Of a stretch of DNA of 64,000 nucleotides, positions 1-32,383 are shown piece by piece. The translations under genes were made by a program, and so were the position numbers. Within the stretch, counting starts at the first letter, position 1; every line of letters begins with the position of its first letter. Source of the stretch: an uncultured Alphaproteobacteria bacterium (GTDB lineage: Bacteria > Pseudomonadota > Alphaproteobacteria > Rhizobiales > Beijerinckiaceae); assembly GCA_963748545.1 (NCBI GenBank), contig CAVVJO010000018.1, forward strand, positions 18,535-82,534, written 5' to 3'. The notes under the pieces are model-generated. The model saw only the letters and a list, made by a program, of their open reading frames with translations, was not told where the DNA came from and ran no database searches.

Positions 1-268
1 GCTGTTTAAGGGGGCGACGCCCATCTGAGTTTGCCGCGGCGTTTCGTCTGGCTTTCCTGCAACCATAACTCGTCAATATTCAAGATCTTAGTTTAGAAAG
101 CGCTCCCCTCAGGGGGCTAAAGCCCGTATTTCCAAAGGCCCTAATCGGTACGGCTAAAACAGCTTGCGGAAAAACTTCGATTCACGAGGGTTTTGGGAAG
201 GGCACGAGTTTACTCAAAGATTGTGCACTTGACACAAGGTTGCCTTTGTAGTATTGTCTGAAATGTGA

Positions 269-415
269 TTAGACATTCTTTTTCGGCTTCCTCTTCGGCG
301 CTGGCTCTTCGCGCAGATGTTTCCGCACTGATTTCACTATCTCAGGATGGAAGAGGTGTTTCAGTGCCTCTTCGTCCGTCATCTCCATCGCGTGTTTCTT
401 CGATTTCTTTGGCAT
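269..415 (-). CDS. hypothetical small Lys-rich protein (48 aa)
   Basis: ATG at 413-415 inside track ORF 269..523. Sequence MPKKSKKHAMEMTDEEALKHLFHPEIVKSVRKHLREEPAPKRKPKKNV. Sits in low-GC DNA beside an IS remnant. No domain recognised. Confidence 0.3.
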   Translation of the reverse strand: MPKKSKKHAMEMTDEEALKHLFHPEIVKSVRKHLREEPAPKRKPKKNV

Positions 416-459
416 CGGTGATCCTATGAAAGAAGCAATCGATCTCTGTGGGCTGATAG

Positions 460-810
460 ATGAGTTTTGGTGACGATCAGCAGTGCCGCAACTATCTTGA
501 GCAGCTACGCTGGCCGCAGGCACGCAGTGCCCTCAATGCGAAAGCAAGGAGATTTCCTCGATCCTAAAGCGTGACCAGTACAATTGCGATAACGAATCAT
601 GCCGCTATCAGTTCTCCGTAACGGCGGGAACGATCTTTCACGATACTCATCTGCCGCTGGTAAAGTGGTTTCTCGCTGACGTACATGATGTGCCAGTCCC
701 GCAAGGGAATGAGTGCCAACCAACTTAAGCGGATGCTCCGAATCAACTACCGCACCGCTTGGTATCTCTGCCACCGCATTCGGCACGCCATGACCGAAGA
801 ACAGCCCCAA
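460..810 (+). mobile_element. IS1595-family transposase gene remnant (N-terminal Zn-ribbon/HTH part only; DDE domain absent)
   Basis: Reading across two frame breaks (~520, ~680) gives MSFGDDQQCRNYLEQLRWPQ.TQCPQCESKE...[62 protein letters not shown]. This is the typical IS1595 N-terminus. Homology stops at ~810, where an antisense ABC ATPase fragment begins. Confidence 0.75.
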
Positions 811-812
811 GA

Positions 813-1028
813 GCCCGAAAGCAGGCGCAGCACCGTCGACTTGCCGCAGCCCGAGGGTCCGAGCAGGGACAGAAACTCTCCAGAACGGATTTCAAGGTCG
901 AGCCCGGTCAGCGCGACGACCCGGTTGGCGAACACCTTGTCGACCTTCCGGAACGTCGCCAACGCCGGGGCGCGCGCCTTGGCGGGCGTTTGTCCTCCCG
1001 CGGACGGAAATGTGACCACTTTGGTCAT
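813..1028 (-). pseudogene. ABC transporter ATP-binding protein, N-terminal fragment only
   Basis: Track ORF 747..1028 starts MTKVVTF...[47 protein letters not shown], containing Walker A. The sequence then loses ABC character exactly where the IS1595 remnant abuts. Confidence 0.7.
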
Positions 1029-1353
1029 TCGTCCACCTGAACCACGGGCCCACGGACCATCGACGATGGAGTTCTGGGGGCTGCGGAAGAAACTCGGGCG
1101 CGAAGACAGAGTTCCGAAATCCCGCGCGAGCCGGCGTGCATCCTATGACCGCCGCCATTTCGCCCCCTCGTTGAGCCGCGTCCTCCGGGACGCCTTCTCT
1201 TCCTAAACTCTATCGAGATCAGGCGAAACGGTCAAACACCTCCGTTCTTCACACCCGTCCGCGGCGCGGTCCTTGACGACTCGAGTTGGGCTGTGTGCGA
1301 TTTGCTGGACCGCGGCGGCGGCTCGAGCCGGCGGCCTGAGAGGTTCCGGATTG

Positions 1354-2091
1354 ATGGCCAGAGATTACGTCGACGACACGCTACGAATTCCGAATCTGGA
1401 TTGGCTATTTCCCAATATGGCGGAATTCGACCGGAGCGTGACGACCTGGCCGTGGCTTCGCCGGGACGTCGATCACCAGGATCGGGCCACTGGTGCTATC
1501 CGATTGTCGGGTTCATCTCAACGGGGACGAGGCGTCGATCCTCACCGCCAACGCGCGCCTCTTCGCCGGACGGGCGGGGCTCGAGATCGGCGCCTGGCGC
1601 GGCTGGTCGACGGCCCATCTCCTCACCGCGGGCCTCGGCGCCTCTGCACGTCGTCGAACCGCTGCTCGCCGACCCCGAATGGCGGGCAGAGTTTTCAGCC
1701 GTGGCTCTGAGCGGTCGGCGGCGCCTATTCGGCGATCTCGTCGCGGACTAGAGTTTGGGGGCAATGTTGTCCGCCTCGGTCAGTCCGGGGTGGGTGGGCC
1801 GTTTGCTTTATTCAGCACTGCGACGACGGCACGGCTCAGCGCCGCCGCTCGCCGCCGCTCGCCTGCCCGCCTGGCCCGCGGCCGCCCAAAAAGGCCAAAC
1901 CGCATGTGGCGAACGGGTTGCGCGCGTTCGAGCAATCCGGCTGGCGCGTCATGGCGTATCAGACGGCGCAGATGATCGGGGTCGCCTGGCGCGGCGACGT
2001 CGCGCCGGTCGGCCACAAGCCGGACCCGACCCAGAGTTGGAGCGTACCGGACCATTTGAGAGGGATCTCGATCGCCGGCGGCGGCGGTTGA
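1354..2091 (+). pseudogene. class I SAM-dependent methyltransferase (Methyltransf_24-like), multiply frameshifted
   Basis: Recognisable pieces lie in three frames: MARDYVDDTLRIPNLDWLFPNMAEFDRSVTTWPWLRRDVDH; VHLNGDEASILTANARLFAGRAGLEIGAWRGWSTAHLLTAGLG; PFALFS..DG.H.GSAP; VANGLRAFEQSGWRVMAYQTAQMIGVAWRGD... with stop at 2091. Confidence 0.45.
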
Positions 2092-2130
2092 CGTCAACCG
2101 AAAGAGGGAGGCCGGAAAAATGGTTTCGAT

Positions 2131-2655
2131 TTGGGGCCCAAGGCCATTGTGACAATTGCGGCCGCCCTCTGCGGGCTCGCCGCTCCTGCGCTCGCCGACG
2201 ACGCGCAGATCGCGCGCGGCAAGTATCTCGTCACGATTGCCGGATGTTCCGATTGCCATACGCCGGGCGCCCTTTCTCGGCAGCCCCGACATGAAGCGCT
2301 ATCTCGCCGGATCGGACGTGGGCTTCTGGATCCCCGGCCAAGGGGTGTTCGTCGGCAACAATCTCACGCCGGACGCGGACACCGGCCTCGGCAAATGGAC
2401 CGCCGAACAGATTGTCATCGCCATCACCGCCGGCAAGCGTCCGGACGGGAGCCAGCTCAGCGGCGTGATGCCCTACGCTTCGTTCGCGCATCTCACCGAC
2501 GACGACGCCAAGGCCATCGCGGCCTTCCTTCAAGAGCCTGCCGCCCGTCCACAACGCGATCGTGTCCGACAAGCTGAGGGGACACCGTCCCGATCGCGGT
2601 CTCGGCGGTGCTGCCGCCTCCGGTCTACAATGCGCTTCCGGCGGCGCAGAAGTAG
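2131..2655 (+). pseudogene. c-type cytochrome (class I, CxxCH), about 3 frame breaks
   Basis: Signal peptide MGPKAIVTIAAALCGLAAPALA followed by GCSDCHTPG. Continues in other frames as DMKRYLAGSDVGFWIPGQGVFVGNNLTPDADTGLGKWTAEQIVIAITAGKRPDGSQLSGVMPYASFAHLTDDDAKAIAAFLQ, then LPPVHNAIVSDKLR, then VPIAVSAVLPPPVYNALPAAQK*. Breaks at ~2270, ~2534, ~2586. Confidence 0.6.
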
Positions 2656-2746
2656 CCGCCGCATAGCCGCTGGCGCGAGGCGCGGAGATCCGGCGTCCGG
2701 TTTGGACTCCTAGTTCTTCGGCCGGAGATCGAGGCCGACGCCCTTG

Positions 2747-3713
2747 TTAACGAATCGAAGGGTATAGGCCTGCTTGATAGTCGATGACCTCCTTCACCAC
2801 GCCGGCCTCCACCATCTTGTCGTAAAAGTCCTTCCAGCGCTCGTCGGTCATCGCCCCGATGCCTTTGGTCAGGTGTCGCCGGAATCGACGATGCCGTATT
2901 CCTTCAGCTTGGCGATCGAGAAGGCGATCTCCTCGTCGGTCAGCTCGGGATTCTGCTTCTTGATTTCGGCGTTCGCCTTGGAATTGTCGCCGTAGAGGTA
3001 ATGATACCAGCCGATAGCGGAAGCGCCTGACGAAGCGCTGCACCATATCCGGGTTCTTCTCGACGATCTCCCGGCGCGTCATGATCTGGGTCGAATAGGT
3101 GTCGTAGCCGTGGTCGGCGAGCAGGAAGACGTTGGGCTTGAACCCGCCCTGGCGCTCCACTTCGAACGGCTCGGAGGTGGCGTAGCCCTGCTGGATCGAG
3201 TGCTTGTCGACGATGAAGGGCGCCGAGTTGAAGTTGTAGGGCTTGATGTTGTCGTCCTTGAACCCGAAGGCGATGCGCATCCAGGCCCAGAAGGTGTTGA
3301 TCGCGCCGGCGCTGACGAAGGCCGGACTGGCGTTCGGCAGGTCTTCCCACTTGTCGAGCCCGACGCCGGGATGCGACATGAAGCACTGCGGATTCTTCTG
3401 GAAGTCGGCGGCGACGGTGACGGTCGGAATGTTGTTCTGCACGTTCAGGAAGTCGCCGATCATGTCTCCGCCCATGAAGAACTCGATCTTTCCTGCGATG
3501 AGCAGCATGCCGCCGTTGGCGCTCGGGCCTCCCTGCAGGATGGTGACGTCGAGACCGAATTTCTCGTAGGTGCCGTCGACCAAAGCCTGAAAAGTAGCCG
3601 CCCGCCTCCGGATCGGCGAGCCAGTCGGTGCCGAACGTCACCTTGTCGAGCGCCAGGGCCGGCCCGGCGAGGCCCAAAGTCGCAAGCAAGCCCGCGATGA
3701 TCGCAACGCGCAT
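2747..3713 (-). pseudogene. ABC transporter substrate-binding protein, NMT1/THI5-like (nitrate/sulfonate/bicarbonate family), 3 frame breaks
   Basis: SD GGAG plus ATG at 3713. MRVAIIAGLLATLGLAGPALALDKVTFGTDWLADPEAGGYF, then after a shift at the T-run 3590-3593, LVDGTYEKFGLDVTILQGGPSANGG...SEPFEVERQGGFKPNVFLLADHGYDTYSTQIMTRREIVEKNPDMVQRFV. An out-of-frame stretch lies between ~3021 and ~2872, then TKGIGAMTDERWKDFYDKMVEAGVVKEVIDYQAGLYPSIR*. Confidence 0.7.
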
Positions 3714-3940
3714 CCGACAATTCTCCTTCGTTTCGCTCCGGAAGGCGCCGAAACGCATGCGATGCCTCCCATCTTTGGAGAGGCTTCGACCCCCGCCCGC
3801 GACGTCCGCGAGCAGCGCCTCTGCGAGCCCCCTTCGAGGGGGTACCATACGAATGCGATTCGCTCCCGTCGATTTGAAAGTTCACGAAGCCGTGTTCCTG
3901 AGGCCTATCGGCCGGACATCGGTCAAAACGGAGTTTCCGC

Positions 3941-5272
3941 ATGCGCATCTGGATCAAGGACCCGCTCGCGATTCTCGCGCCCGACGCCGAGCGCGGAGTC
4001 GTCGTCGACGGCGACGAGATCGTCGAATGCATCCCGCGCGGACGCTCTCCGGCCGCGCCATGCGGGCTGACGTTCGACGCCTCCCGCCATGTCGTGCTGC
4101 CGGGCCTCGTCAATACGCATCATCATTTCGATCAGATGCTCACCCGCGCTCACCCCGCGGGCGAAGGCAAGGACCTGATCCCCTGGCTCGTGGCGATGGA
4201 GCGGATATGGGACCGGATGACGCCCGAAGCGATGGGCCTCGCGGTCCGCATGGCGCTGGTCGAGCTCCTGTTGTCGGGCTGCACGACGTCGGCCGACCAT
4301 CACAATCTGTTCCCGCGGGGTCTCGAGCACGCGATCGACATCGAGGTCGAGGAGGCCAAGGCGATCGGCTTGCGGATGACGGTCACGCGCGGCTCAATGG
4401 GCATCTCCGAGAAGGACGGCGGCCTTCAGCCGGACTCGATCGTGCAAAGCTCGGATGAGATCCTCAGGGACAGCGAGCGCGTGCTCAACCGCTACCACGA
4501 TCCAAAGCCCGGCGCGTTGGTGCAAGTCGCGCTCGCGCCCTGCTCGCCGCTGGCCACGCCCTTGCGCGTGTTGTCGGAATCCGCCGCGCTCGCCGAAGCG
4601 CACGACGCGCGCCTGCATTGCCACCTCTGCCAGTCGCCGGACGAAGACGCCTATGCGATGCAGGCCTTCGGCAAGCGCTCAGTCGATCTTTTGCAGGACG
4701 CCGGCTGGCTTTCTCCCCGGACCTGGGTCGCGCACGGCGTCCATTTCAACGCCGATGAGATTGAGCGGCTCGGGCGCGCGGGGGTCGGCGTCTCTCATCT
4801 GGCCTCCTCGGACATGGCTTTCGGCGTCGGGATCTGCCCGACACGGGAACTCGAAGCGGCGGGCGTCCCCGTCAGCCTCGGCGTCGACGGCTCGGCCTCG
4901 AACGATTCCTCGAACGTCATGGAGGAGGCGCGCCACGCGCTGATGCTGCAACGCGCCCGGTACGGCCACGCGGCGATCGGCCCGTATGACGCGCTGCGCT
5001 GGGCGACCGAGGGCGGCGCCCACTGCCTCGGCCGCGCCGACATCGGCCGGATCGGCGCGGGCCTGCAAGCCGATCTCGCGCTCTATCGCCTCGACGAGCC
5101 GCGCTTCTCGGGCGCGCAGGATCCGATCGCCGCGCTCGTCCTCTGCGGCGCCCACGCCGCCGACCGCGTCATGGTCGCGGGCCGGTGGCGGGTCATCGAC
5201 GGGCGGCCCGAGGGCGTCGACCTCGAGGCACTGATCGCCAGGCATAAGGCGGCGGCGAAGGCGTTCGCCTGA
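3941..5272 (+). CDS. amidohydrolase, 8-oxoguanine deaminase / hydroxydechloroatrazine ethylaminohydrolase-like
   Basis: Intact 443-aa ORF with SD. Metal-binding HxH (LVNTHHHF). Overall pattern of cytosine/guanine-deaminase-type amidohydrolases (GVDGSASND, ADLALY). Confidence 0.8.
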   Translation: MRIWIKDPLAILAPDAERGVVVDGDEIVECIPRGRSPAAPCGLTFDASRHVVLPGLVNTHHHFDQMLTRAHPAGEGKDLIPWLVAMERIWDRMTPEAMGLAVRMALVELLLSGCTTSADHHNLFPRGLEHAIDIEVEEAKAIGLRMTVTRGSMGISEKDGGLQPDSIVQSSDEILRDSERVLNRYHDPKPGALVQVALAPCSPLATPLRVLSESAALAEAHDARLHCHLCQSPDEDAYAMQAFGKRSVDLLQDAGWLSPRTWVAHGVHFNADEIERLGRAGVGVSHLASSDMAFGVGICPTRELEAAGVPVSLGVDGSASNDSSNVMEEARHALMLQRARYGHAAIGPYDALRWATEGGAHCLGRADIGRIGAGLQADLALYRLDEPRFSGAQDPIAALVLCGAHAADRVMVAGRWRVIDGRPEGVDLEALIARHKAAAKAFA

Positions 5273-5282
5273 CCGGCGAGGC

Positions 5283-5843
5283 TTACGGCTCGCCCCGCTT
5301 CTTGCGGTAGACGACGTAGCGACGGAGAGGATCGTCTGGCCTGCGATGCTCGCGCTCGAAGTCGTCGGCGGGATCGTGCGTCATGCCGATCCGCTCCATG
5401 ACACGCCGCGACGGCGCATTGACGGCAACGGCGTAAGCGACGATTTCCGCCAGATCGAGCCTCCCGAATCCGTCGGCGAGCGCGGCGCGCGCGCCCTCGG
5501 TCGCGTAGCCGTAGCCCCAATAGTTGCGCGCCAGACGCCACCCGGCCTCGACCGCCGGCCCAAACGGCACTTCCGTTCCGATGTGCAGCAAGCCGACGAA
5601 GCCGATGAAGCGCGACACGCCAGGAACCTCCGCGGCCCAGAAGCCGAAACCGTGCTGTTCGATGTGCTTCTGGAACGTCGCCGCCTGAGCGTCGCTGTCT
5701 TCGCGGCTGAGCGTCGCCGGCCAGTAGCGACGCACTTCCGGATCGGCGTTCAGCGCAGCGTAGGGCGCGAAGTCCTCCTCCCGCCAGGGTCGAAGAATGA
5801 GGCGGGGGGTTTTGATGACGAAGTCTGGCATCTGAGCGATCAT
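5283..5843 (-). CDS. GNAT family N-acetyltransferase (RimJ/RimL-like)
   Basis: MIAQMPDFVIKTPRLILRPWREEDFAPYAALNADPEVRRYW...NYWGYGYATEGARAAL...NAPSRRVMERIGM. The ATG overlaps the lpxB stop (ATGA). Confidence 0.85.
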   Translation of the reverse strand: MIAQMPDFVIKTPRLILRPWREEDFAPYAALNADPEVRRYWPATLSREDSDAQAATFQKHIEQHGFGFWAAEVPGVSRFIGFVGLLHIGTEVPFGPAVEAGWRLARNYWGYGYATEGARAALADGFGRLDLAEIVAYAVAVNAPSRRVMERIGMTHDPADDFEREHRRPDDPLRRYVVYRKKRGEP

Positions 5844-7072
5844 TGATGGGCGGAGGAAATCTCTTTCCGGTTCTCTGGCGCTTGCGCCGGCGACAAGCCG
5901 CGCCGCGCGGCCATCGTCTCCATGACCGCCCGCGCTGCGTGCGCGCTCGGCGCCCCGGCGTCGGACAGGCGCATAGCCGCATCGAGCCGCGCAAGCCCCT
6001 CGATTTGGGCCTCGCGCTCGGGGCCGTCGCGGAGGATCGCTGCGAGATCGACCGCAAGCGCTGTCGGCGTGCAGGCGCGCTGTAGCTTTTCGGGAATCGT
6101 CCGGTCGGCGAGGATCAGGTTCGGCAGCAGGATCGATGGGACCTTGATCAAGAACTTCAGCTGCTCCTCGACAATCCCGACCTTGTAGGCGCCGACCAGC
6201 GGCACGCCGGAGAGCGCAAGCTCGAGCGTCACCGTGCCGGAGGCGGCGAGCGCCGCGCGCGCGGTGCGGAAGGCCTCGAATTTCGCCTGCTCGCCGAGCA
6301 CGATCCGCGGCGCGACAGGCCACAGCGCGGCGCGCGCGCGCACCTCCTCCTCGATATGCGGCAGGGTCGGAAGGATGGCGGTGAACGGCCCAATCTCCGC
6401 TTGCAGCGCGCCCAGCGCGGCGCCGAAATCGGCCATCAGCCGGCGGATCTCCGAGCGGCGCGAGCCCGGAAGCACCACCAGCACGGGCGGTTCGGCGTTG
6501 CGTCGTCGCGCCTCGTCCTCGTTGGGCCTGAGTTCATCAAGCCGCTCGATCAGCGGGTGCCCGACATAGACGCAGCGCGGGCCTCCGAGCCGCACATAGG
6601 CGTCCGGCTCGAAGGGCAGGAGGCCGAGCACGCAATCGACATAGGGCAGCATCGCCTTGGCGCGGCCGGGCCGCCAGGCCCAGACGGTGGGACTCACGTA
6701 GTCGATGATCGGCAGGTCGGGCAGCGCCTTGCGCACCTTTCGCGCGACGCGGTGGGTAAAGTCGGGGCTGTCGATGACGACGAGCGCGTCCGGCCGTTCC
6801 GCAATGATCGCTTCGGCCGTCTGACGGATGCGCTTGACGAGCGTCGGCAGGCGGGCGACCACCGGCAAGAGCCCCATGACGGCGATGTCGCCGATCGGAA
6901 ACAGGCTTTCGAGGCCTTCGGCTTCCATCGCCTCGCCGCCGACGCCGGTGAACGCGACGCCCGCGGGGTTGGCTTCGCGGAGCGCCCGCATCAGCTTGAA
7001 ACCGAGCTGGTCGCCGGAATGTTCGCCAGCGACCAGAGCGATGCGCAGCGGTCGATCCCGCTCGAGGGTCAC
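5840..7072 (-). CDS. lpxB: lipid-A-disaccharide synthase
   Basis: LRIALVAGEHSGDQLGFKLMRALR...VVIDSPDFTHRVARKVRK...VLPGSRRSEIRRL...ASGTVTLELALSGVPLVGAYK. The GTG start overlaps the lpxI stop (GTGA at 7069-7072). The track ORF extends further upstream as a shadow. Confidence 0.9.
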   Translation of the reverse strand: MTLERDRPLRIALVAGEHSGDQLGFKLMRALREANPAGVAFTGVGGEAMEAEGLESLFPIGDIAVMGLLPVVARLPTLVKRIRQTAEAIIAERPDALVVIDSPDFTHRVARKVRKALPDLPIIDYVSPTVWAWRPGRAKAMLPYVDCVLGLLPFEPDAYVRLGGPRCVYVGHPLIERLDELRPNEDEARRRNAEPPVLVVLPGSRRSEIRRLMADFGAALGALQAEIGPFTAILPTLPHIEEEVRARAALWPVAPRIVLGEQAKFEAFRTARAALAASGTVTLELALSGVPLVGAYKVGIVEEQLKFLIKVPSILLPNLILADRTIPEKLQRACTPTALAVDLAAILRDGPEREAQIEGLARLDAAMRLSDAGAPSAHAARAVMETMAARRGLSPAQAPENRKEISSAHQ

Positions 7073-26582: not shown

Positions 26583-27001
26583 TTAGGCCTCCAGTCCGAG
26601 ACAAACGACGCGCATGTCGGCCGCAGCCTTGCGAAGCGCGGCGTCGAGCGTCGCAAGCGGCAAGCTGCGCCGCCGCGCGAGCTCCAGATACGTCGCGTCA
26701 TAGATCGTGAGACCATAATGGTCCGCGAGCTTCAGGGTGGTTGTCCAGGCATAGAGTCCGTGTCGACGTCGACGGTTATCGTCAACGAGGCGAGTTCGGC
26801 GAGAGAACTCGTCTCGATAGGCCGCGTGATCCGTGTCCGACGGATAGCGGATTGGAACGCGTTGGCGACTTCAAGGCGCCAGAGCATAGGGGCCACGGCA
26901 CGGGACTCCACGATCCGATCGAGCACCGCGTCAGTCGCCGGAGTGGCTTCGTCGTCGAAATACCACGCCATAGTGAGCGAGGCATCGACCACCAGGGTCA
27001 T
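26583..27001 (-). pseudogene. vapC: type II toxin VapC (PIN domain), frame break near 26755
   Basis: MTLVVDASLTMAWYFDDEATPATDAVLDRIVES...LWRLEVANA... continues in another frame as YAWTTTLKLADHYGLTIYDATYLELARRRSLPLATLDAALRKAAADMRVVCLGLEA*. The ATG overlaps the antitoxin stop (ATGA). Confidence 0.75.
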
Positions 27002-27239
27002 AGGCGACCTTCATCGATCAACGCCCTGAGCGAGAGGCCGCCAAGCTTCACACCTCTCCGCATCTCCCAATCCGCTGCGCGGCGCGCCGCCCGCGCTCGC
27101 GATCGGGCGTGGCGCCCGGCGGGACGAGCCGCGCGACAACCTTGCCGCGCCGCGTGATGACGACATCCTCACCCGCTTCGACCCAATCGAGCAATTGCCC
27201 GAACCGATCCTTCGCCTCGAACGCACCGATTTCTTTCAC
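26998..27239 (-). pseudogene. type II antitoxin (Phd/YefM-like), frame break at the CCC run 27066-27068
   Basis: GTG-start VKEIGAFEAKDRFGQLLDWVEAGEDVVITRRGKVVARLVP... One base fewer in attGGGaga would give ...EMRRGVKLGGLSLRALIDEGRL*, ending in ATGA overlap with vapC. Confidence 0.65.
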
Positions 27240-27310
27240 AACCAGCCTCGAACAGCGAGACAACAGTCTAGCTACGATACGCTCCGGCGGGATCAGAGGT
27301 CCACCGCTTC

Positions 27311-28546
27311 TTACCGCCCTGAGCCCTCCGCATGCGCCGTCCGCCGCTCGAGCAAGAAATTCCCGAGCGCCCCGGCCGCCATCAGAACGGCGGTGCCGAG
27401 AAAGACCGCGCGCATGCCGATGTGGCCGCCGACAAAGCCGCCCGCGAGCGGGCCCAGCACCTGCCCGACATATTGGGTCGAGACCGACCAGCCGAGCAGG
27501 CCGCCGGCGATCGTCTCGGGCGCGCTGTGGCGAATGACGCTGGTCATGCCGGGCGCGAGCCCCCCGAGCGCCAGGCCCAGCAGAAACCTCAGCGCGACGA
27601 GCTGCCAGCTCGCCGCCACAAAGGCCTGCGGAACCAGGATCAGCGCCGCCGCCGCGAGCGACAGGACGACGATTCGCCAGGGGCCGTAACGGTCGGCGAG
27701 CCGGCCGATCGGCGGCCCCGACAGAACGCCGCCGAGAGCGCCCGCCGACATGGCGAAGCCTGACACGACCGTGATCTGCGACGGCGCGGCGAACAACGCG
27801 ACATAGACGGTGATGATCGGCTCGATCGACGTCAACGCGAAGGTCAGGAGGAGCCCGGTCGCGAGCATGGCCACGACGGGGCGCTTGTCCGGAATCCGCG
27901 CCCACAGGCCGGATCGGGCGCCTTGCGCCTTCGGGGGCCGCGGCTTCTCGCGCAACAGGAATGTCGTCCCGAGGAAGCTCACGAAGATCGCGGCGCCCGA
28001 CAAGAGAAAAGTCGATCGGATGCCGATCAGGGGCGGCAAAATTCCCCCGATCAGCGGGCCGACCAGATTGCCGGCCATGATGCCCGAGGACAGGAGGCCC
28101 AGCGCCCAGCCCGACTTCGTCTTGGGCGTCTGCGCTGCGACCAGGATCATCGAGCCCGAGGCGTAGCCGCCGAGGAGCCCGGTCAGGAGCCGTATCAAGA
28201 CCAACTGCTCGATGGTCTGCGCCATGCCGGTCAGCGACATCGCGACGGCCATGCCGAGGCTCGCGCGGATCAGCATCAGCTTCCGCCCGTAGAGGTCGCC
28301 GAGCCGCCCCCATAAGGGGGCGGTCAGCGCGGCGGTGAAGAAGGTCGCGCCATAGGCGACCCCCGACCACTGCACGATCGCGGCATGGCCCGTGACGCCG
28401 ATCTCCTCGACATAGATCGGCAGGAACGGCAGGAGCAGCGTCATCGCCACGATGGTGGTGAACGAGCCGAGCGTGCAGACGATCAGGTTTATGAACCAGG
28501 GGTCGTCGTGGGGGGTCGCCTCTGCGACGCGCGCCGCCTCCGTCAT
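27311..28546 (-). CDS. MFS transporter (drug/H+ antiporter-like)
   Basis: 411 aa with 12 predicted TM helices and the MFS motif GRLGDLYGRKLML. ATG at 28546 overlaps the stop of the GntR gene (ATGA). The track ORF 27311..29122 upstream part is shadow. Confidence 0.85.
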   Translation of the reverse strand: MTEAARVAEATPHDDPWFINLIVCTLGSFTTIVAMTLLLPFLPIYVEEIGVTGHAAIVQWSGVAYGATFFTAALTAPLWGRLGDLYGRKLMLIRASLGMAVAMSLTGMAQTIEQLVLIRLLTGLLGGYASGSMILVAAQTPKTKSGWALGLLSSGIMAGNLVGPLIGGILPPLIGIRSTFLLSGAAIFVSFLGTTFLLREKPRPPKAQGARSGLWARIPDKRPVVAMLATGLLLTFALTSIEPIITVYVALFAAPSQITVVSGFAMSAGALGGVLSGPPIGRLADRYGPWRIVVLSLAAAALILVPQAFVAASWQLVALRFLLGLALGGLAPGMTSVIRHSAPETIAGGLLGWSVSTQYVGQVLGPLAGGFVGGHIGMRAVFLGTAVLMAAGALGNFLLERRTAHAEGSGR

Positions 28547-29208
28547 CGGCCTGCCGCCATGAGGCCGCTCGCCCGCAAGAGCCGACGATTGTCGTTCAGC
28601 GAGCGGATCAGCCGGTCGCGGGTGTCGCGGACATGCTCCGCCGCCTCGCGCGCCGCCTCGTCCGGCTCGTTCCGCCTGATGTGCCCGAGGATGCGCCGGT
28701 GCTCGGCCCAGGCCAATTCGCGCGACGGCTCGGTCCAGACTTCCAGCCACCGCGCCCGGGCGAGACGCGTCATCACGCCGGCGATCGCCTTGACGAGAAA
28801 CGGATTGCCCGACAGCCGGGCGACCGCGACATGGAAGTCCGCCCCGACCCGATGCCACTCCTCGCGCGGCGTTCCCGGGCCGCAAGCGTCGAGCATCGCC
28901 TCGATCGCGTCGACGTCCGGCGCGCTCGCGCGCGCGGAGGCGAGGCGGACGGCGGCGGTCTCCAGGGGTTCGCGGAACTCGGCGAGCGCCTCGATCTCGC
29001 TGAGATCGACCGGCGCGACCGCCCAGGCCCGGCCGTCGCGGCCGACCAGCTCCTCGGCTTCCAGGCGGGCCAGCGCTGCGCGGATCGGCGTGCGCGAGCC
29101 CGCGAACCGGCTCTCGAGCCATCGCTCCGTCAGCCGTTCGCCCGGCGCGAGGTCGAGCGACAGGATCATCTCGCGAAGCTGAGCGTAGATCTGGAGCATC
29201 TGGGACAT
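28543..29208 (-). CDS. GntR family transcriptional regulator (FadR/FCD-type C-terminal domain)
   Basis: MSQMLQIYAQLREMILSLDLAPGERLTERWLESRFAGSRTPIRAALARLEAEELV (wHTH) followed by a helical FCD-like domain. Co-transcribed with the MFS gene. Confidence 0.85.
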   Translation of the reverse strand: MSQMLQIYAQLREMILSLDLAPGERLTERWLESRFAGSRTPIRAALARLEAEELVGRDGRAWAVAPVDLSEIEALAEFREPLETAAVRLASARASAPDVDAIEAMLDACGPGTPREEWHRVGADFHVAVARLSGNPFLVKAIAGVMTRLARARWLEVWTEPSRELAWAEHRRILGHIRRNEPDEAAREAAEHVRDTRDRLIRSLNDNRRLLRASGLMAAGR

Positions 29209-29279
29209 CGCGGCCTTAACGGGAGCAGGTCTTTTGGCGCCTCTCGCTAGCGGCCTTTGGTATCCCGAGCAAGCTATTT

Positions 29280-29291
29280 TTGGTATACCAA
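29280..29291. promoter_or_regulatory. candidate GntR operator: perfect 12-bp palindrome TTGGTATACCAA
   Basis: Lies about 72 nt upstream of the GntR start and fits the GntR-family GT-N-AC core. A TTGGTAT half-site repeats at 29257-29263. Confidence 0.45.
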
Positions 29292-29372
29292 TCGCCCAGC
29301 CCGACTTCGCTCTCGGCGTCTGCGCCGCGACCAGGATCATCGAGTCCGAGGCATGGCCGCCGAGGAGACCGG
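29291..29372 (-). pseudogene. ~80-bp remnant of a second MFS gene (paralogue of 27311..28546)
   Basis: DNA is about 88% identical by eye to 28101-28180. It translates to ...GGHASDSMILVAAQTPRAKSGWAI, compared with GGYASGSMILVAAQTPKTKSGWAL in the intact MFS. Truncated on both sides. Confidence 0.7.
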
Positions 29373-29528
29373 GATCGGACCCGGCGACGCGGCAGTCTCT
29401 TAAGCGCCGCGCGGGACGAACTAGGACAGCGGAAATCTCACTCTACATTGTTAACCAGATTTGATATGAATTATCTTTGCCATCGAACGCGTAGCAGAAA
29501 ATGCGAGACAGCACCGAGAGGCGATACA

Positions 29529-29783
29529 ATGCACAAACTGGTTATTTCGGGCGCCATTGCCGCGTTCGTTTCAGCGGCGCAGCCTGCTTTAGCGGGATCG
29601 TTCTTTGATTCTGGGGCTGGAGGCGTTGTCGGACTCGCCGTCGGCCTCATGGCCGGACAGGCCATGTTCTGCGCGTCCCATCCAGAAGCCTGTCAGGGGC
29701 GCCGTGCGGTACGAAGGGTGGCGCTGCTCACCGATCGGAACCTGAGCGTGCTGTCACGTACAAGCACTCGGCCCCCCATGTGA
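29529..29783 (+). CDS. hypothetical small secreted protein with glycine-zipper segment
   Basis: SD GAGAGG 8 nt upstream. Signal peptide MHKLVISGAIAAFVSAAQPALA, then GGVVGLAVGLMAGQAM and CASHPEAC. The Arg-rich tail may be out of frame (see findings). Confidence 0.45.
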   Translation: MHKLVISGAIAAFVSAAQPALAGSFFDSGAGGVVGLAVGLMAGQAMFCASHPEACQGRRAVRRVALLTDRNLSVLSRTSTRPPM

Positions 29784-30646
29784 TGCCGGCCACGCGGACA
29801 GTTACGGCAGCCCCGTTGCCATACGCACCCCAGGCGCCCACTTCGCCATCCACGTCAAGCCCGGATGAAACGAGTTATCAGCGCGCGCTCGAAGAGCGCC
29901 TGGACAAGGTGGTGCAAGCCGCCACAAAGCAGCTTAATTTCGTGGCCCAATTCATAAAAGAGCATCCCAAGAGCCCCAAACTCCTCGAGTACCTGAGTGA
30001 AACGGCTACACTTAAAGCTGCTGTCGAGAAGGGCAATCCCGACGACATCGAGCAAAAATCGACAACGCTATCCGCGGACTTGGCGCGAGATCAGGATTAT
30101 CAGGTGTTCGACGCCAAGCGAGCGAAGGAGCAGAAGATTATAGAGGCACAGAATTTAAGCGACGACATTCAACGGGCCCAAGTTCAGCGCGCGTTCCTCA
30201 TTGACTACGTTACCAAGAATCCACTCGCATCCGAAGTCGTAAACTTTCTGCCGCTTATCAAGCAGGTCGATCCTGCACTCGAGAACCCGGGCGTTGATCA
30301 ACTGCAACGATTGACCGGTCAGATCGAACTCGCCATCCGTGAAGCCAATCTCGATGATGCGTTTCGCAATTTTCAAGTAGACCCGGCAAAGCCTTCTCTG
30401 CAGATCGACGGCAACAATGCTGAGCAGAACGAAATGAGGCTGCCGATCACAGACAAGAACCGCTTTCTTCTAGAAGGCGATCTCAACGACGTGATCGCGC
30501 TTTACAACGCAAGCTCTCGCGCGCCTCATGTTGCCCACAATTTGCGCGGGCAATTCGTGTTTACTGGCGACCGCGCGGCTATTTGCCTTTTTGGTGACAA
30601 CCCCGCGGGGGTATCGCTCATCGTCCGCTCCAAACTGGCTCGATAA
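29783..30646 (+). CDS. hypothetical protein (no recognised family), low-GC islet
   Basis: Start overlaps the preceding stop (TGATG). A Pro/Ser/Thr-rich N-terminus is followed by a ~200-aa helical region and a beta-rich end (...FVFTGDRAAICLFGDNPAGVSLIV). About 50% GC versus about 66% in flanks. Confidence 0.5.
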   Translation: MPATRTVTAAPLPYAPQAPTSPSTSSPDETSYQRALEERLDKVVQAATKQLNFVAQFIKEHPKSPKLLEYLSETATLKAAVEKGNPDDIEQKSTTLSADLARDQDYQVFDAKRAKEQKIIEAQNLSDDIQRAQVQRAFLIDYVTKNPLASEVVNFLPLIKQVDPALENPGVDQLQRLTGQIELAIREANLDDAFRNFQVDPAKPSLQIDGNNAEQNEMRLPITDKNRFLLEGDLNDVIALYNASSRAPHVAHNLRGQFVFTGDRAAICLFGDNPAGVSLIVRSKLAR

Positions 30647-30718
30647 GTCATCAAAACCGTCACCGGACTTGAGCAATCGTGTGATGCTCAAAAGCTCGAA
30701 ACGTATGACATCGTCGCT

Positions 30719-31768
30719 ATGCAACGTGGCGCTTTCCTGAAGACAGCCCAACCCGAAGCACTTTCCTTGATTAAGCAAATTGAAATCGGCGGTATGCGCC
30801 AATTCGCGATGATAAGCGCCAGCGAGATTGCCGCTTCATCCGCAGCCGAACGCGCTGCAGTTGAGCAGATCACGGCCGACGTTGCAGCTGGGGCTCGTAA
30901 TGGGTTTGGCGTGCTCTTGTTGGAGAACAACTCCCCAGGCTTGTGTCTCATCACATCGGAGAAGAGCGAGGCCCACTCCCAACTTATTCTTAAGAACGCG
31001 GACAAATTGACATTCGATATGCACGTCGCCCCAACCCTAGCAATCAAGTCGCTCGAGGACGCTTTCCTCGCCACAGAAAAAGCCCAGTGTGGGGCGGTTT
31101 ATGCATCTGCATCTGATCTCAAGACCATCAGTGGAAGTTTGGCTGGCGCGGGCATCAAATCCACCTTCTCCAGCCTTTGGATTGCTCCTTCGGAGCTTGA
31201 CGCCAAGGACGCCGAATTGGCTGATCAGAAACAACTCGAGGCACAGCAGTCTCTTGACCGCCAGCAAAGGGCCGACGACGAAGCACGCCTGCGGGCACAG
31301 CGTGATAAGGATCTTGCCTCAACCCAGTCCGTGCAGCAGGCGGAATTGCGCACCAAGTACGAGGGATCTGCCCAGGCGGCTGTGGCCGCCATCGTCGCGG
31401 ACGTCAAAAACTGGGAACAAAACCAGACTGGACCTGTTGGGGTTGAATTTTCAGAATTTAGTGAGTGGTTAGGTGCAATTAGATCTGACCACTGGGAAAT
31501 CATGACGACTGGCTCCGAGGTTCAGGACTATGGAACTTCGGACTTTAAGGGCCGCTCGTTGGATACCGCCCTTGCCCGTGTCACCATACGCATTAAGAAC
31601 TCGATCCTGGGTGAGTATAAGGATGCGTGCTTCGTCTTCGCGCGAATGGTCGATCCAGAATTCAATATGGTTCGTGAGCCTGTGTCCGCGCCCTGCGAGA
31701 ACATGGACCCTGTCAGAGTTTGGCAAACGGGGCACAGGTTTGAGAGCCGGTGGGTCGTCGGCGGCTAA
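30719..31768 (+). CDS. hypothetical protein with central coiled-coil (no recognised family), low-GC islet
   Basis: Same frame as the preceding ORF, separated only by TAA 30644-30646 plus 72 stop-free nt. No SD before ATG 30719. Coiled-coil ELADQKQLEAQQSLDRQQRADDEARLRAQRDKD. Confidence 0.5.
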   Translation: MQRGAFLKTAQPEALSLIKQIEIGGMRQFAMISASEIAASSAAERAAVEQITADVAAGARNGFGVLLLENNSPGLCLITSEKSEAHSQLILKNADKLTFDMHVAPTLAIKSLEDAFLATEKAQCGAVYASASDLKTISGSLAGAGIKSTFSSLWIAPSELDAKDAELADQKQLEAQQSLDRQQRADDEARLRAQRDKDLASTQSVQQAELRTKYEGSAQAAVAAIVADVKNWEQNQTGPVGVEFSEFSEWLGAIRSDHWEIMTTGSEVQDYGTSDFKGRSLDTALARVTIRIKNSILGEYKDACFVFARMVDPEFNMVREPVSAPCENMDPVRVWQTGHRFESRWVVGG

Positions 31769-31795
31769 CGCTCGCCGCTGCCTAGGGCGAAAGCA

Positions 31796-32383
31796 TTAAT
31801 TATTCGCCGGCTTCGACCGCGCGGCGAGCGCTTCGAGCTTGGCGACCATGGCGTCGCTGTCCCACTCGGCCGCGCCCTCGCGGATGGCGAGCGCCGCGCC
31901 GTCGCGGCCGACGATCAGCGTGGTCGGGAAGCCCCGGGCGCTGAGCCCGGTCGCAAGCCGGCCCTCGGGGTCAAGGTAGAGTTTCAGGCGCTTCAGCCCC
32001 ATCCGCTCGAAGGTCTCGCTCGAGGGCGACGGGCCGACCGGGTCCTTGGTCACGGCGACGACCGCGAAGTCCTTGTCCGGCAGGCGGGCGGCCAGCCGGT
32101 CGAGCGAGGGCATCTCCTGAAGGCACGGCCCGCACCAGGGCGCCCAAAGGTTGAGGATCACCGTCTTGCCGCGGAACGCCTCGATCGAAACCGGGCGGCC
32201 GGACGCGTCGAGGAAGGCGCTGAGCTCAACCGGCTCCCGGTTCAGAAGCTCGACGAAATCCGTCGTTGCGGGCGGCCGCTGCGCCTGGAGCGCCGCGAGG
32301 ATCGCAACGCCGATCCCAAGCAGAAGCGCGAGCGCGGCCCATTCGCGCCTTTTGCGGGCGGGCGCCGCGACGGTCGCGCTCAT
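31796..32383 (-). CDS. TlpA-family thiol:disulfide oxidoreductase (membrane-anchored thioredoxin)
   Basis: N-terminal TM anchor and the thioredoxin motif LNLWAPWCGPCLQEMP. The ATG overlaps the stop of the upstream HCO-like gene. Confidence 0.88.
   Translation of the reverse strand: MSATVAAPARKRREWAALALLLGIGVAILAALQAQRPPATTDFVELLNREPVELSAFLDASGRPVSIEAFRGKTVILNLWAPWCGPCLQEMPSLDRLAARLPDKDFAVVAVTKDPVGPSPSSETFERMGLKRLKLYLDPEGRLATGLSARGFPTTLIVGRDGAALAIREGAAEWDSDAMVAKLEALAARSKPANN

Follow-up and report, generated by a model that had tools for sequence, protein, structure and literature searches.

The low-GC islet between a gntR-MFS gene pair and tlpA in the window (the whole 64-kb stretch of DNA analyzed here) is probably acquired foreign DNA with one damaged cargo gene from an uncharacterized family of exported proteins, most likely a decaying, non-functional relic. 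The host, a Roseiarcus-like alphaproteobacterium, would have acquired approximately 2.5 kb of DNA in place of its own sequence between tlpA and the gntR-MFS pair. The islet carries one gene rather than three, and that gene belongs to a large, uncurated Hyphomicrobiales family of exported cell-envelope proteins. In most relatives, PG_binding_1/2, SH3_3, TPR, or TonB-C domains putatively anchor the shared module to the cell wall or outer membrane. The window copy appears to have three defects: the 300–400 N-terminal residues of its closest relatives are missing, a TAA breaks the frame where a conserved Tyr is expected, and a C6 run marks a loss of frame between it and a putative signal peptide encoded by the first open reading frame (ORF1). 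It is these three defects that suggest decay and loss of function. In the living cell, the gene would presumably be a pseudogene; the frameshift could be an assembly error.

The islet is compositionally foreign. The lowest-GC 2-kb interval of the entire 64 kb lies at 29.8 kb, where GC is 0.548 versus a mean of 0.663 (sd 0.029; a departure of ~4 sd). The original prediction was right that the islet contrasts with its flanks, although its figure of ~50% GC was slightly low. In 300-nt intervals, GC is 0.52–0.58 between 29.25 and 31.8 kb, but ~0.61–0.66 across ORF1 (29.55–30.0 kb), and 0.65–0.76 in the flanks. The contrast extends to third codon positions (GC3), with values of 0.64, 0.62, and 0.61 for ORF1, ORF2, and ORF3 versus 0.90–0.91 for the flanking genes (a GntR/FCD regulator, an MFS_1 transporter, a TlpA-like thioredoxin-fold protein, and a COX1-like protein). 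An AT-richer leader (29373..29528, forward strand; GC 0.53), recognized from its sequence and GC, includes a GAGAGG Shine-Dalgarno sequence at 29516–29521; a consensus scan revealed no sigma-70-like promoter. No integrase or transposase ORF was identified within 29.3–31.8 kb, and the islet junctions featured no repeats beyond chance, no flanking direct repeat, and no tRNA. A literature search on Roseiarcus and genomic islands found nothing relevant. Elsewhere in the window, a second low-GC patch (39.8–40.9 kb) is kept in relatives, with 84–86% protein identity to the related contig L011, and this conservation ruled it out as a second islet.

The interval between the gntR-MFS pair and tlpA was compared with four related, Roseiarcus-like contigs (L009, L010, L011, and L013, whose COX1-like proteins are 85%, 90%, 81%, and 81% identical, respectively), as the original prediction had recommended. 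The islet was absent from the same locus in all four, which, together with its foreign composition, upholds the proposed horizontal acquisition. DNA similarity to the relatives stops at 29291, in the gntR upstream region (aligned to L011 position 12761), and resumes at 31806, at the tlpA 3′ end. The non-ancestral segment between these breakpoints (29292..31805; 2,514 bp) contains the lowest-GC interval and stands in place of ~0.2–0.8 kb in L009, L011, and L013. A 151-aa membrane-protein gene occupies the islet’s spot, between tlpA and gntR/MFS, in two of the four relatives, and tblastn detected no remnant of it inside the islet. These observations support a scenario in which the islet’s arrival came with loss of resident DNA, including all trace of the 151-aa gene, in keeping with the predicted insertion with deletion.

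At the left junction is an 85-nt internal fragment of an MFS ortholog (29288..29372, reverse strand), previously noted as a remnant of ~80 bp and here found to be real. It is 87% identical to positions 28098–28182 of the resident MFS gene (~codons 108–136 of that gene; residues 122–150 of the L011 protein) and 84–90% identical to the MFS orthologs of the four related contigs. The fragment is not present upstream of gntR in L011 and is specific to this genome. Its derivation from a diverged MFS ortholog hints at recombination with a related donor’s version of the same locus. The low GC might instead be intrinsic to an ancestral gene that the relatives have since lost, and the tlpA/MFS interval is indeed variable in all of them (the 151-aa gene in two, nothing in one, and an RND pump in another). 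However, this scenario is very improbable given the GC3 of 0.61 versus 0.90 in neighboring genes, the MFS fragment at the junction, and the observation that homologs elsewhere match the GC of their own surroundings (0.54–0.67). Moreover, the closest homolog is only 69–71% identical and occurs in unrelated mobile contexts.

The original prediction delimited three ORFs within the islet with correct coordinates (ORF1, 29529–29783; ORF2, 29783–30646; ORF3, 30719–31768), and the TGATG overlap of ORF1 and ORF2 and the common frame of ORF2 and ORF3 that it described are both present. Its reading of them as an ORFan cassette did not survive comparison with homologs. The fused ORF2 and ORF3 match 45 proteins (E from 1e-68 down to 2e-294), many of which cover 90–100%, and many 94–100%, of the fusion as single proteins. 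A profile search identified 1,807 cluster representatives (clusters at 50% identity) with E ≤ 1e-3, of which 806 reach E ≤ 1e-30. ORF2 and ORF3 are therefore not ORFans. Alignments of the homologs are collinear and in one frame, with the exception of two that shift to another frame and two in separate pieces, and no homolog begins or ends at the ORF2/ORF3 boundary points. Because homologs run as single polypeptides across the intervening stop, ORF2 and ORF3 can be assigned with confidence, from these alignments, to one gene divided in two by an in-frame stop, a single TAA (30644..30646, forward strand). Of 44 alignments, 28 have Tyr opposite the TAA; these include every one with >50% identity apart from P0020, which has His. 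Where the family motif is LAPY, the window reads LAR followed by the stop, indicating that the codon before the TAA has also changed (Pro to Arg).

The alternative of a three-gene cassette with separate products, in which ORF1 and ORF2 are translationally coupled via TGATG, has next to no likelihood. While the overlap and the ATG at 30719 exist, the three ORFs are not independently conserved: ORF2 and ORF3 form one protein in all homologs, and the 24 codons (72 nt) from the TAA to the ORF3 ATG are open and homologous to family coding sequence. Neither ORF2 nor ORF3 has a ribosome-binding site, and the Shine-Dalgarno sequence is, as originally described, found at the first ORF only (GAGAGG, 7 nt before ORF1). 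In addition, a six-Cys module without a signal peptide would sit in the wrong compartment.

Collinear tblastn alignments to the 45 homologs and an AlphaFold model of the homolog P0018 suggest that ORF2 (29783..30643 up to the stop, forward strand) encodes a Pro/Ala/Ser/Thr linker, a helical domain (~29894–30400), and the first alpha/beta strands (from ~30440). The rest of the module (30647..31768, forward strand; ORF3 is the part from the ATG at 30719) is predicted, from the alignments and a model of the homolog P0016 (pLDDT 89.9), to comprise alpha/beta structure to ~31190, a long helix (~31190–31430), and a C-terminal NTF2-like beta-sheet domain (~31440–31765). The coiled coil that had been predicted appears in both models as a helix of ~80 residues.

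ORF1 (29529..29783, forward strand; 84 codons) encodes a signal-peptide-like N-terminus (MHK, a hydrophobic core, and ALA-G) followed by a Gly-rich hydrophobic stretch. Its GC3 fits the module and not the host, and its codon-position pattern is coding-like in the ORF1 frame only. A search of 5.8 billion proteins returned no ORF1 homologs. Two profiles of family N-termini, built from 14 and 19 sequences and covering the signal peptide plus a GG[ILV].G motif, were run against all six-frame fragments of the window, and ORF1 had no significant match. BLAST similarity to P0026 and P0030 was weak (E 0.07–0.9). On these results, ORF1 was rejected as the conserved family N-terminus. Even so, it probably forms the 5′ portion of the gene that continues in ORF2 and ORF3, on the basis of composition, position, and signal-peptide-like sequence rather than homology. 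It is one base out of frame with ORF2 at a C6 homopolymer at their junction (29772..29777, forward strand), where one added C fuses the two in frame (…TRPPHVMPATRT…) and generates a 746-codon frame from the ORF1 ATG with one internal TAA. A single secreted protein of ~740 aa, which the original prediction gave as its other option, is nearer the truth. Programmed -1 frameshifting at the C run was rejected because CGG CCC CCC ATG forms no X XXY YYZ heptamer in the ORF1 frame.

Across ~17 kb of aligned coding sequence in the window, conserved syntenic genes contain at least seven frameshifts, some of them at short G/C runs. Because the assembly is indel-prone, the ORF1/ORF2 break at C6 may be an artifact. 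Taken further, the gene could be intact and encode an exported protein of ~745 aa in which a signal peptide, a Gly-rich segment, and a linker precede the module, with the C6 frameshift and the TAA both being errors in a long-read MAG. The frameshift tally and the continuous frame obtained with one added C are consistent with this, as are the Shine-Dalgarno sequence, signal-peptide-like sequence, and islet-like GC3 of ORF1, the restriction of a ribosome-binding site to that ORF, the retention of the conserved cysteines, and the existence of family members in which a short linker joins the signal peptide to the module. The TAA could be a base-calling error, but conserved genes of the same assembly contain no in-frame stop in 5,596 aligned codons. 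This suggests that a spurious stop is uncommon in the assembly and that stop-creating substitution errors are rare here. The Pro to Arg change before the TAA and the lack of homology of ORF1 to any family N-terminus also argue against an intact gene. Likewise, substitutions at columns that are ≥95% conserved are somewhat raised in the window copy (9 of 126 versus 3–6 in its three closest relatives). On balance, an intact gene appears unlikely, and a decaying relic is the preferred explanation. Any decay would be recent, given that all six Cys and 117 of the 126 conserved positions are kept. The short N-terminus is not in itself a defect, because in some family members, of 700–770 aa, nothing but a signal peptide and a short linker precedes the module.

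Members of the family are exported proteins of ~700–1,400 aa that share a ~650-aa module and are named ‘hypothetical protein’ or ‘peptidoglycan-binding protein’ in databases. Metagenomic members are 36–71% identical overall to the window copy. The family features six near-invariant Cys and the motifs NRFL.EGDL, NLRG.F.F, QRGAFLK, CGAVYASA, DHWE, and LGEYKD.CF. End-to-end collinear similarity, together with the retained motifs and Cys (none of the mismatches at conserved columns is a Cys), firmly places the window copy in this family. Among 41 diverse members, PG_binding_1 was identified in 20, PG_binding_2 in seven, and SH3_3 in six, with TonB_2 at the C-terminus of two further members; TPR domains are also common in relatives. 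These domains, the six Cys, and the signal-peptide-like N-termini of homologs suggest that the family resides in the cell envelope, presumably in the periplasm, where its putative role would be one of binding or scaffolding rather than catalysis.

Screening of the islet ORFs against Pfam, NCBIfam, PADLOC, and PHROGs returned nothing meaningful and no curated-family match near a gathering score, in agreement with the earlier failure to recognize a Pfam-type motif; no characterized family matches. A PDB sequence profile search yielded no matches at E ≤ 10. The proposed AlphaFold-Foldseek comparison, conducted on the homologs P0018 and P0016, produced confident models (pLDDT 84–90) and weak fold-level matches only, with no match at E ≤ 0.001 to PDB or BFVD in three Foldseek searches of the two models. 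In the models, a helical domain leads into a bilobed alpha/beta region, which is followed by a long helix and an NTF2-like domain; the module may weakly resemble Tim44-C, ARC6, and SnoaL-like folds and type II binding proteins. Membership in a defense system was rejected, as PADLOC-DB models identified no families for the window pieces or for four homologs and defense genes occurred only in the neighborhoods of homologs. A phage origin was also rejected, with no relative on 2.9 million viral contigs and PHROG matches that reflect coiled-coil noise.

Loci that encode homologs include integrase, relaxase, IS elements, Cas1 with PolB (casposon-like), GmrSD, CBASS, and DUF499/DUF1156, and family members occur on plasmids of Methylobacterium, Mesorhizobium, Aminobacter, Agrobacterium, and Rhizobium. 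No neighbor genes are conserved across 50-odd homolog loci, where the only recurrent non-self cluster is Cas1. Collectively, these distributions suggest that the family travels on plasmids, integrative elements, and genomic islands of soil Alphaproteobacteria, where it is carried as a lone cargo gene.

What appeared to be a three-gene ORFan cassette is thus replaced by a more ordinary case, a foreign cargo gene in a variable intergenic spot, either damaged in fact or made to seem so by an indel-prone assembly. The frameshift tally suggests that other ORF-level oddities in the window should be read with assembly quality in mind. The family itself is large and confidently foldable, has no Pfam, NCBIfam, or PDB representative, and deserves to be curated as a domain of unknown function. 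Its members are consistently exported and fused to cell-wall-binding domains, and they turn up repeatedly on mobile elements in soil and plant-associated Hyphomicrobiales. A further reading, which is decidedly doubtful, is that these would be periplasmic proteins anchored to peptidoglycan, carried singly by plasmids, integrative/conjugative elements, and casposon-like elements beside GmrSD, CBASS, Bil-like, and DUF499/DUF1156 systems, and would represent a new envelope-level defense, exclusion, or competition factor, with the window copy a recently inactivated example.

Among known structures, NTF2-like folds (the Tim44 C-terminal domain, 3qk9; the ARC6/PARC6 intermembrane-space domains, 5d9r/5u9o; and SnoaL/ketosteroid-isomerase-like proteins, 3d9r) may resemble the C-terminal ~110 residues of the module, predicted to form a curved antiparallel sheet on helices. 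Foldseek probabilities are 0.9–0.98 with target-normalized TM-scores of 0.37–0.50, but E is only 0.01–0.15, there is no sequence similarity, and no catalytic residues are assignable, such that the resemblance is at fold level only. Type II periplasmic substrate-binding proteins (4zv2, 4g4p, 6ssy) are similar to the predicted two-lobed alpha/beta center of the module and provide the best Foldseek match of the second model (E 6.7e-3, probability 0.99; not significant), but differ in their target-normalized TM-scores of 0.17–0.29, rmsd of 8–20 Å, and lack of hinge or ligand-site correspondence. Among the closest counterparts is the unnamed Hyphomicrobiales family itself (e.g., WP_234742300.1 of Methylobacterium radiotolerans pNYY1_1, WP_199202647.1 of Mesorhizobium sp. 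131-2-5, and MGO4871364.1 of Roseiarcus sp.), which has the ~650-aa C-terminal module in common with the window copy; plasmid members are 30–33% identical to it over the last 440 residues. Unlike these proteins, the window copy has an N-terminal side devoid of PG-binding, SH3, and ‘domain A’ regions; a TAA lies inside it, and its putative signal peptide is in a different frame. Compared with small acquired islets in general that harbor decaying cargo at variable intergenic spots, the islet differs in having no integrase, transposase, tRNA, or flanking direct repeat, but is alike in its deviant composition, absence from relatives, replacement of resident DNA, and damaged gene.

Our analyses support the interpretation that the low-GC islet between tlpA and the GntR-MFS gene pair holds a single gene, a member of a large, unannotated family of exported, cell-wall-associated proteins distributed by mobile elements within the Hyphomicrobiales. 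Translation of 29783-31768 on the plus strand in one frame yields 661 codons interrupted by one internal stop, the TAA at 30644-30646 that separates ORF2 (29783-30646) from ORF3 (30719-31768). The fusion of ORF2 and ORF3 matched 45 proteins (E 1e-68 to 2e-294), most of which are 830-1,100 aa in length and many of which span 94-100% of the fusion as a single polypeptide. In tblastn searches, nearly all homologs gave a single collinear frame-2 alignment (~29.75-31.76 kb) running through the TAA. Tyr is opposite this codon in 28 of 44 alignments and, where identity exceeds 50%, in all except that of homolog P0020 (His); the family motif LAPY here reads LAR followed by the stop. No homolog in these alignments starts or stops at the ORF2/ORF3 split, which indicates that the split is a nonsense change peculiar to the window sequence rather than a conserved two-gene arrangement. 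The three-gene reading of the original prediction is therefore not sustained.

The compositional part of that prediction was borne out. In 300-nt windows, GC content is 0.52-0.58 across 29.25-31.8 kb, locally ~0.61-0.66 over ORF1 (29529-29783, plus strand), and 0.65-0.76 in the flanks. The 2-kb window from 29.8 kb is the GC minimum of the 64 kb (0.548, versus a mean of 0.663 and standard deviation of 0.029 for all 2-kb windows). Codon-position counts gave third-position GC (GC3) values of 0.62, 0.61, and 0.64 for ORF2, ORF3, and ORF1, respectively, versus 0.90-0.91 for gntR, MFS, tlpA, and the COX1-like gene. The predicted ORF coordinates, the TGATG overlap of ORF1 and ORF2, and the presence of a Shine-Dalgarno sequence at ORF1 alone (GAGAGG, 7 nt before it) were likewise confirmed, and domain assignments verified the flanking genes, all on the minus strand: an MFS_1 transporter (27311-28507), a GntR/FCD regulator (28543-29208), and a Redoxin/AhpC-TSA thioredoxin-fold protein (tlpA, ending at 31796) whose TlpA-like role fits the adjoining COX1-like, DUF420, and UbiA genes. 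Examination of ORFs and repeats in the islet revealed no integrase, transposase, tRNA, or junction repeat. The next-lowest GC values of the window (0.58-0.59 in 2-kb windows) lie at 39.2-40.9 kb, in a patch that codes for a Methyltransf_24 protein and a protein of 278 aa that has no Pfam match. Both proteins are 84-86% identical to those of a related contig (L011); the patch is thus ancestral, and it was rejected as an islet.

ORF1 had no homolog among 5.8 billion proteins, and profiles of family N-termini did not match it. It is tied to the downstream gene by its islet-like GC3, by a coding-like codon-position pattern in its own frame that the ORF2 frame upstream of 29783 lacks, by its ribosome-binding site, and by a signal-peptide-like sequence (MHK, a hydrophobic core, and ALA/G). 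Moreover, one C added to the C6 run at 29772-29777 brings ORF1 and ORF2 into frame (746 codons, one internal stop), and family members of 700-770 aa exist with just a signal peptide and short linker ahead of the ~650-aa shared part (hereafter, the module).

Proteins of two relatives (L011 and L013) align with shifts of frame to at least five conserved window genes, namely a bestrophin-like gene (~38.72-38.75 kb), an ABC transporter (two, ~36.60 and 36.35 kb), UbiA (heme O synthase-like; 34.93 kb), CopD (two, ~23.92 and 24.23 kb), and an MFS_3 paralog (47.27 kb). Across 5,596 aligned codons of conserved genes there were at least seven frameshifts and zero stops in frame, a pattern more consistent with an indel-prone, probably long-read, assembly than with mass pseudogenization. 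The ORF1/ORF2 break may thus be an assembly artifact; the TAA is more likely real. The window copy keeps all conserved cysteines and has mismatches in 9 of the 126 highly conserved columns (3-6 in its three closest relatives), a pattern that fits a recent relaxation of selection. That the gene is intact in the organism and mis-assembled, as the neighboring frameshifts could imply, seems unlikely beside an in-frame stop of a kind seen in none of the conserved genes. We consider the window copy, which is N-terminally short and interrupted, to be probably a pseudogene, and its defect is likely to be real.

The COX1-like protein adjoining tlpA shares 77% identity with its Roseiarcus fermentans counterpart and 81-92% with several metagenomic proteins. 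The order DUF420, COX1-like, tlpA is kept in four related contigs, from all of which the islet is absent at the tlpA locus. Content beyond tlpA differs among them, comprising a 151-aa membrane-protein gene, gntR, and MFS in L011, the same 151-aa gene and MFS in L009, MFS directly in L013, and a 239-aa ORF, RND pump, and MFS in L010. Gene turnover in Roseiarcus-like genomes thus seems to have a local hotspot in the tlpA-MFS interval. Similarity to the relatives' DNA ends at 31806 (tlpA end) and at 29291 in the gntR operator region, and no trace of the 151-aa gene is left in the window; these observations support the predicted insertion with deletion. This region bears conserved TGGTAT/ATACCA half-sites. 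Upstream of gntR (29240-29291), the motifs TGGTATACCA and GGGATACCAAA are conserved with L011 (TTTGGTATGC…GGGATACCAAA) and likely represent the GntR operator; they mark exactly where, at the left junction, ancestral sequence ends. The predicted MFS remnant was also recovered there, with 29288-29372 being 87% identical to 28098-28182 within the resident MFS gene. This 85-nt fragment sits exactly at the junction, has no counterpart upstream of gntR in L011, and is about equally diverged from the resident gene (87% identity) and from orthologs on other contigs (84-90%), which indicates an origin in the MFS gene of a different lineage and not in a recent local duplication. A plausible route would be recombination with a related donor already bearing the module gene in its tlpA-MFS interval. 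On the other side of the MFS gene, before a Crp-like regulator, lies a minus-strand pair (26732-27299): a Phd/YefM-type antitoxin ORF (Pfam E 3.7e-9) and, after it, an 89-aa ORF without a Pfam match that by eye resembles PIN/VapC; this interval is ~0.7 kb longer than that of L011.

A HMMER profile of alignment A1 (26 homologs plus the window pieces) recovered, at E ≤ 1e-3, the representatives of 1,807 clusters (50% identity), of which 806 remained at E ≤ 1e-30, indicating that the islet ORFs are not the ORFans they had been taken for. The module had no match in Pfam, NCBIfam, or PADLOC searches, only coiled-coil noise in PHROGs, and zero matches at E ≤ 10 in a PDB sequence profile search; the family is therefore large yet uncurated. 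Members bear the name 'hypothetical protein' (including one from a Roseiarcus sp. MAG) or, when plasmid-borne in cultured strains, 'peptidoglycan-binding protein.' AlphaFold models of homologs P0018 (696 aa; pLDDT 84.4, pTM 0.43) and P0016 (443 aa; pLDDT 89.9) concur in a helical domain, an alpha/beta region of two similar lobes, an ~80-residue helix, and a C-terminal four-stranded curved sheet with helices. Foldseek returned nothing at E ≤ 0.001 against PDB and BFVD. Weak Foldseek resemblances link the C-terminal domain to NTF2-like folds (Tim44-C, ARC6/PARC6, SnoaL-like; target-normalized TM-scores 0.37-0.50) and the alpha/beta part to type II periplasmic binding proteins (E 6.7e-3, poor rmsd), and would make binding or scaffolding a likelier role than catalysis.

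Outside the module, Pfam domains in 41 diverse members comprised PG_binding_1 (20 members), PG_binding_2 (7), SH3_3 (6), TPR families (6), Caspase (Peptidase_C14; 2), and Trypsin_2 (1), and two close homologs have a C-terminal TonB_2 domain. Together with the signal-peptide-like N-termini of full-length members and six near-invariant cysteines, these accessory domains indicate that the proteins are probably exported and retained at the peptidoglycan or outer membrane. A ~220-aa 'domain A' (FVVDGLA…FTWC…TILHS…REIQRLS…LRI.AV; A1 profile positions 5-330) precedes the module in the closest homologs and is missing from the window copy. Some proteins with a best match that excludes the module contain domain A as well (e.g., P0233, P0242, P0248, P0261, P0262, P0267, and P0310), indicating that it is an independent, equally unannotated domain. 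The window instance is modest in itself, but it would be reasonable to curate the family to which it belongs.

Neighbors of module-gene homologs include a phage-type integrase, GmrSD, ResIII, a methyltransferase, DUF4411, and an M78 peptidase (L003); DUF1156/DUF499 and a relaxase (L004-L006); CBASS, IS21, IS66, and a Cas1 fragment (L007); an integrase and IS66 (L008); IS256 and a GSU2403-type nucleotidyltransferase (on plasmids, in Methylobacterium); and a ThiF/E2/multiubiquitin cluster and RES-Xre pair (on plasmids, in Mesorhizobium). All-against-all comparison of flanking ORFs from >50 loci revealed no recurrent neighbor except Cas1 in five loci, and no module relative was found in viral contigs. 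These genomic contexts indicate that the family travels as mobile cargo and has no fixed partners. Cas1 adjoins the homologs in L029 (766-6776), L025/L026 (~200-6200), L007 (15917-16612), and L001 (~3500-3800). In L029, and similarly in L025/L026, it lies beside a family-B polymerase-like gene, in L029 an ORF of ~1,000 aa with weak family-B DNA polymerase matches, followed by GmrSD; this arrangement of Cas1 and a polymerase-like ORF is reminiscent of casposons.
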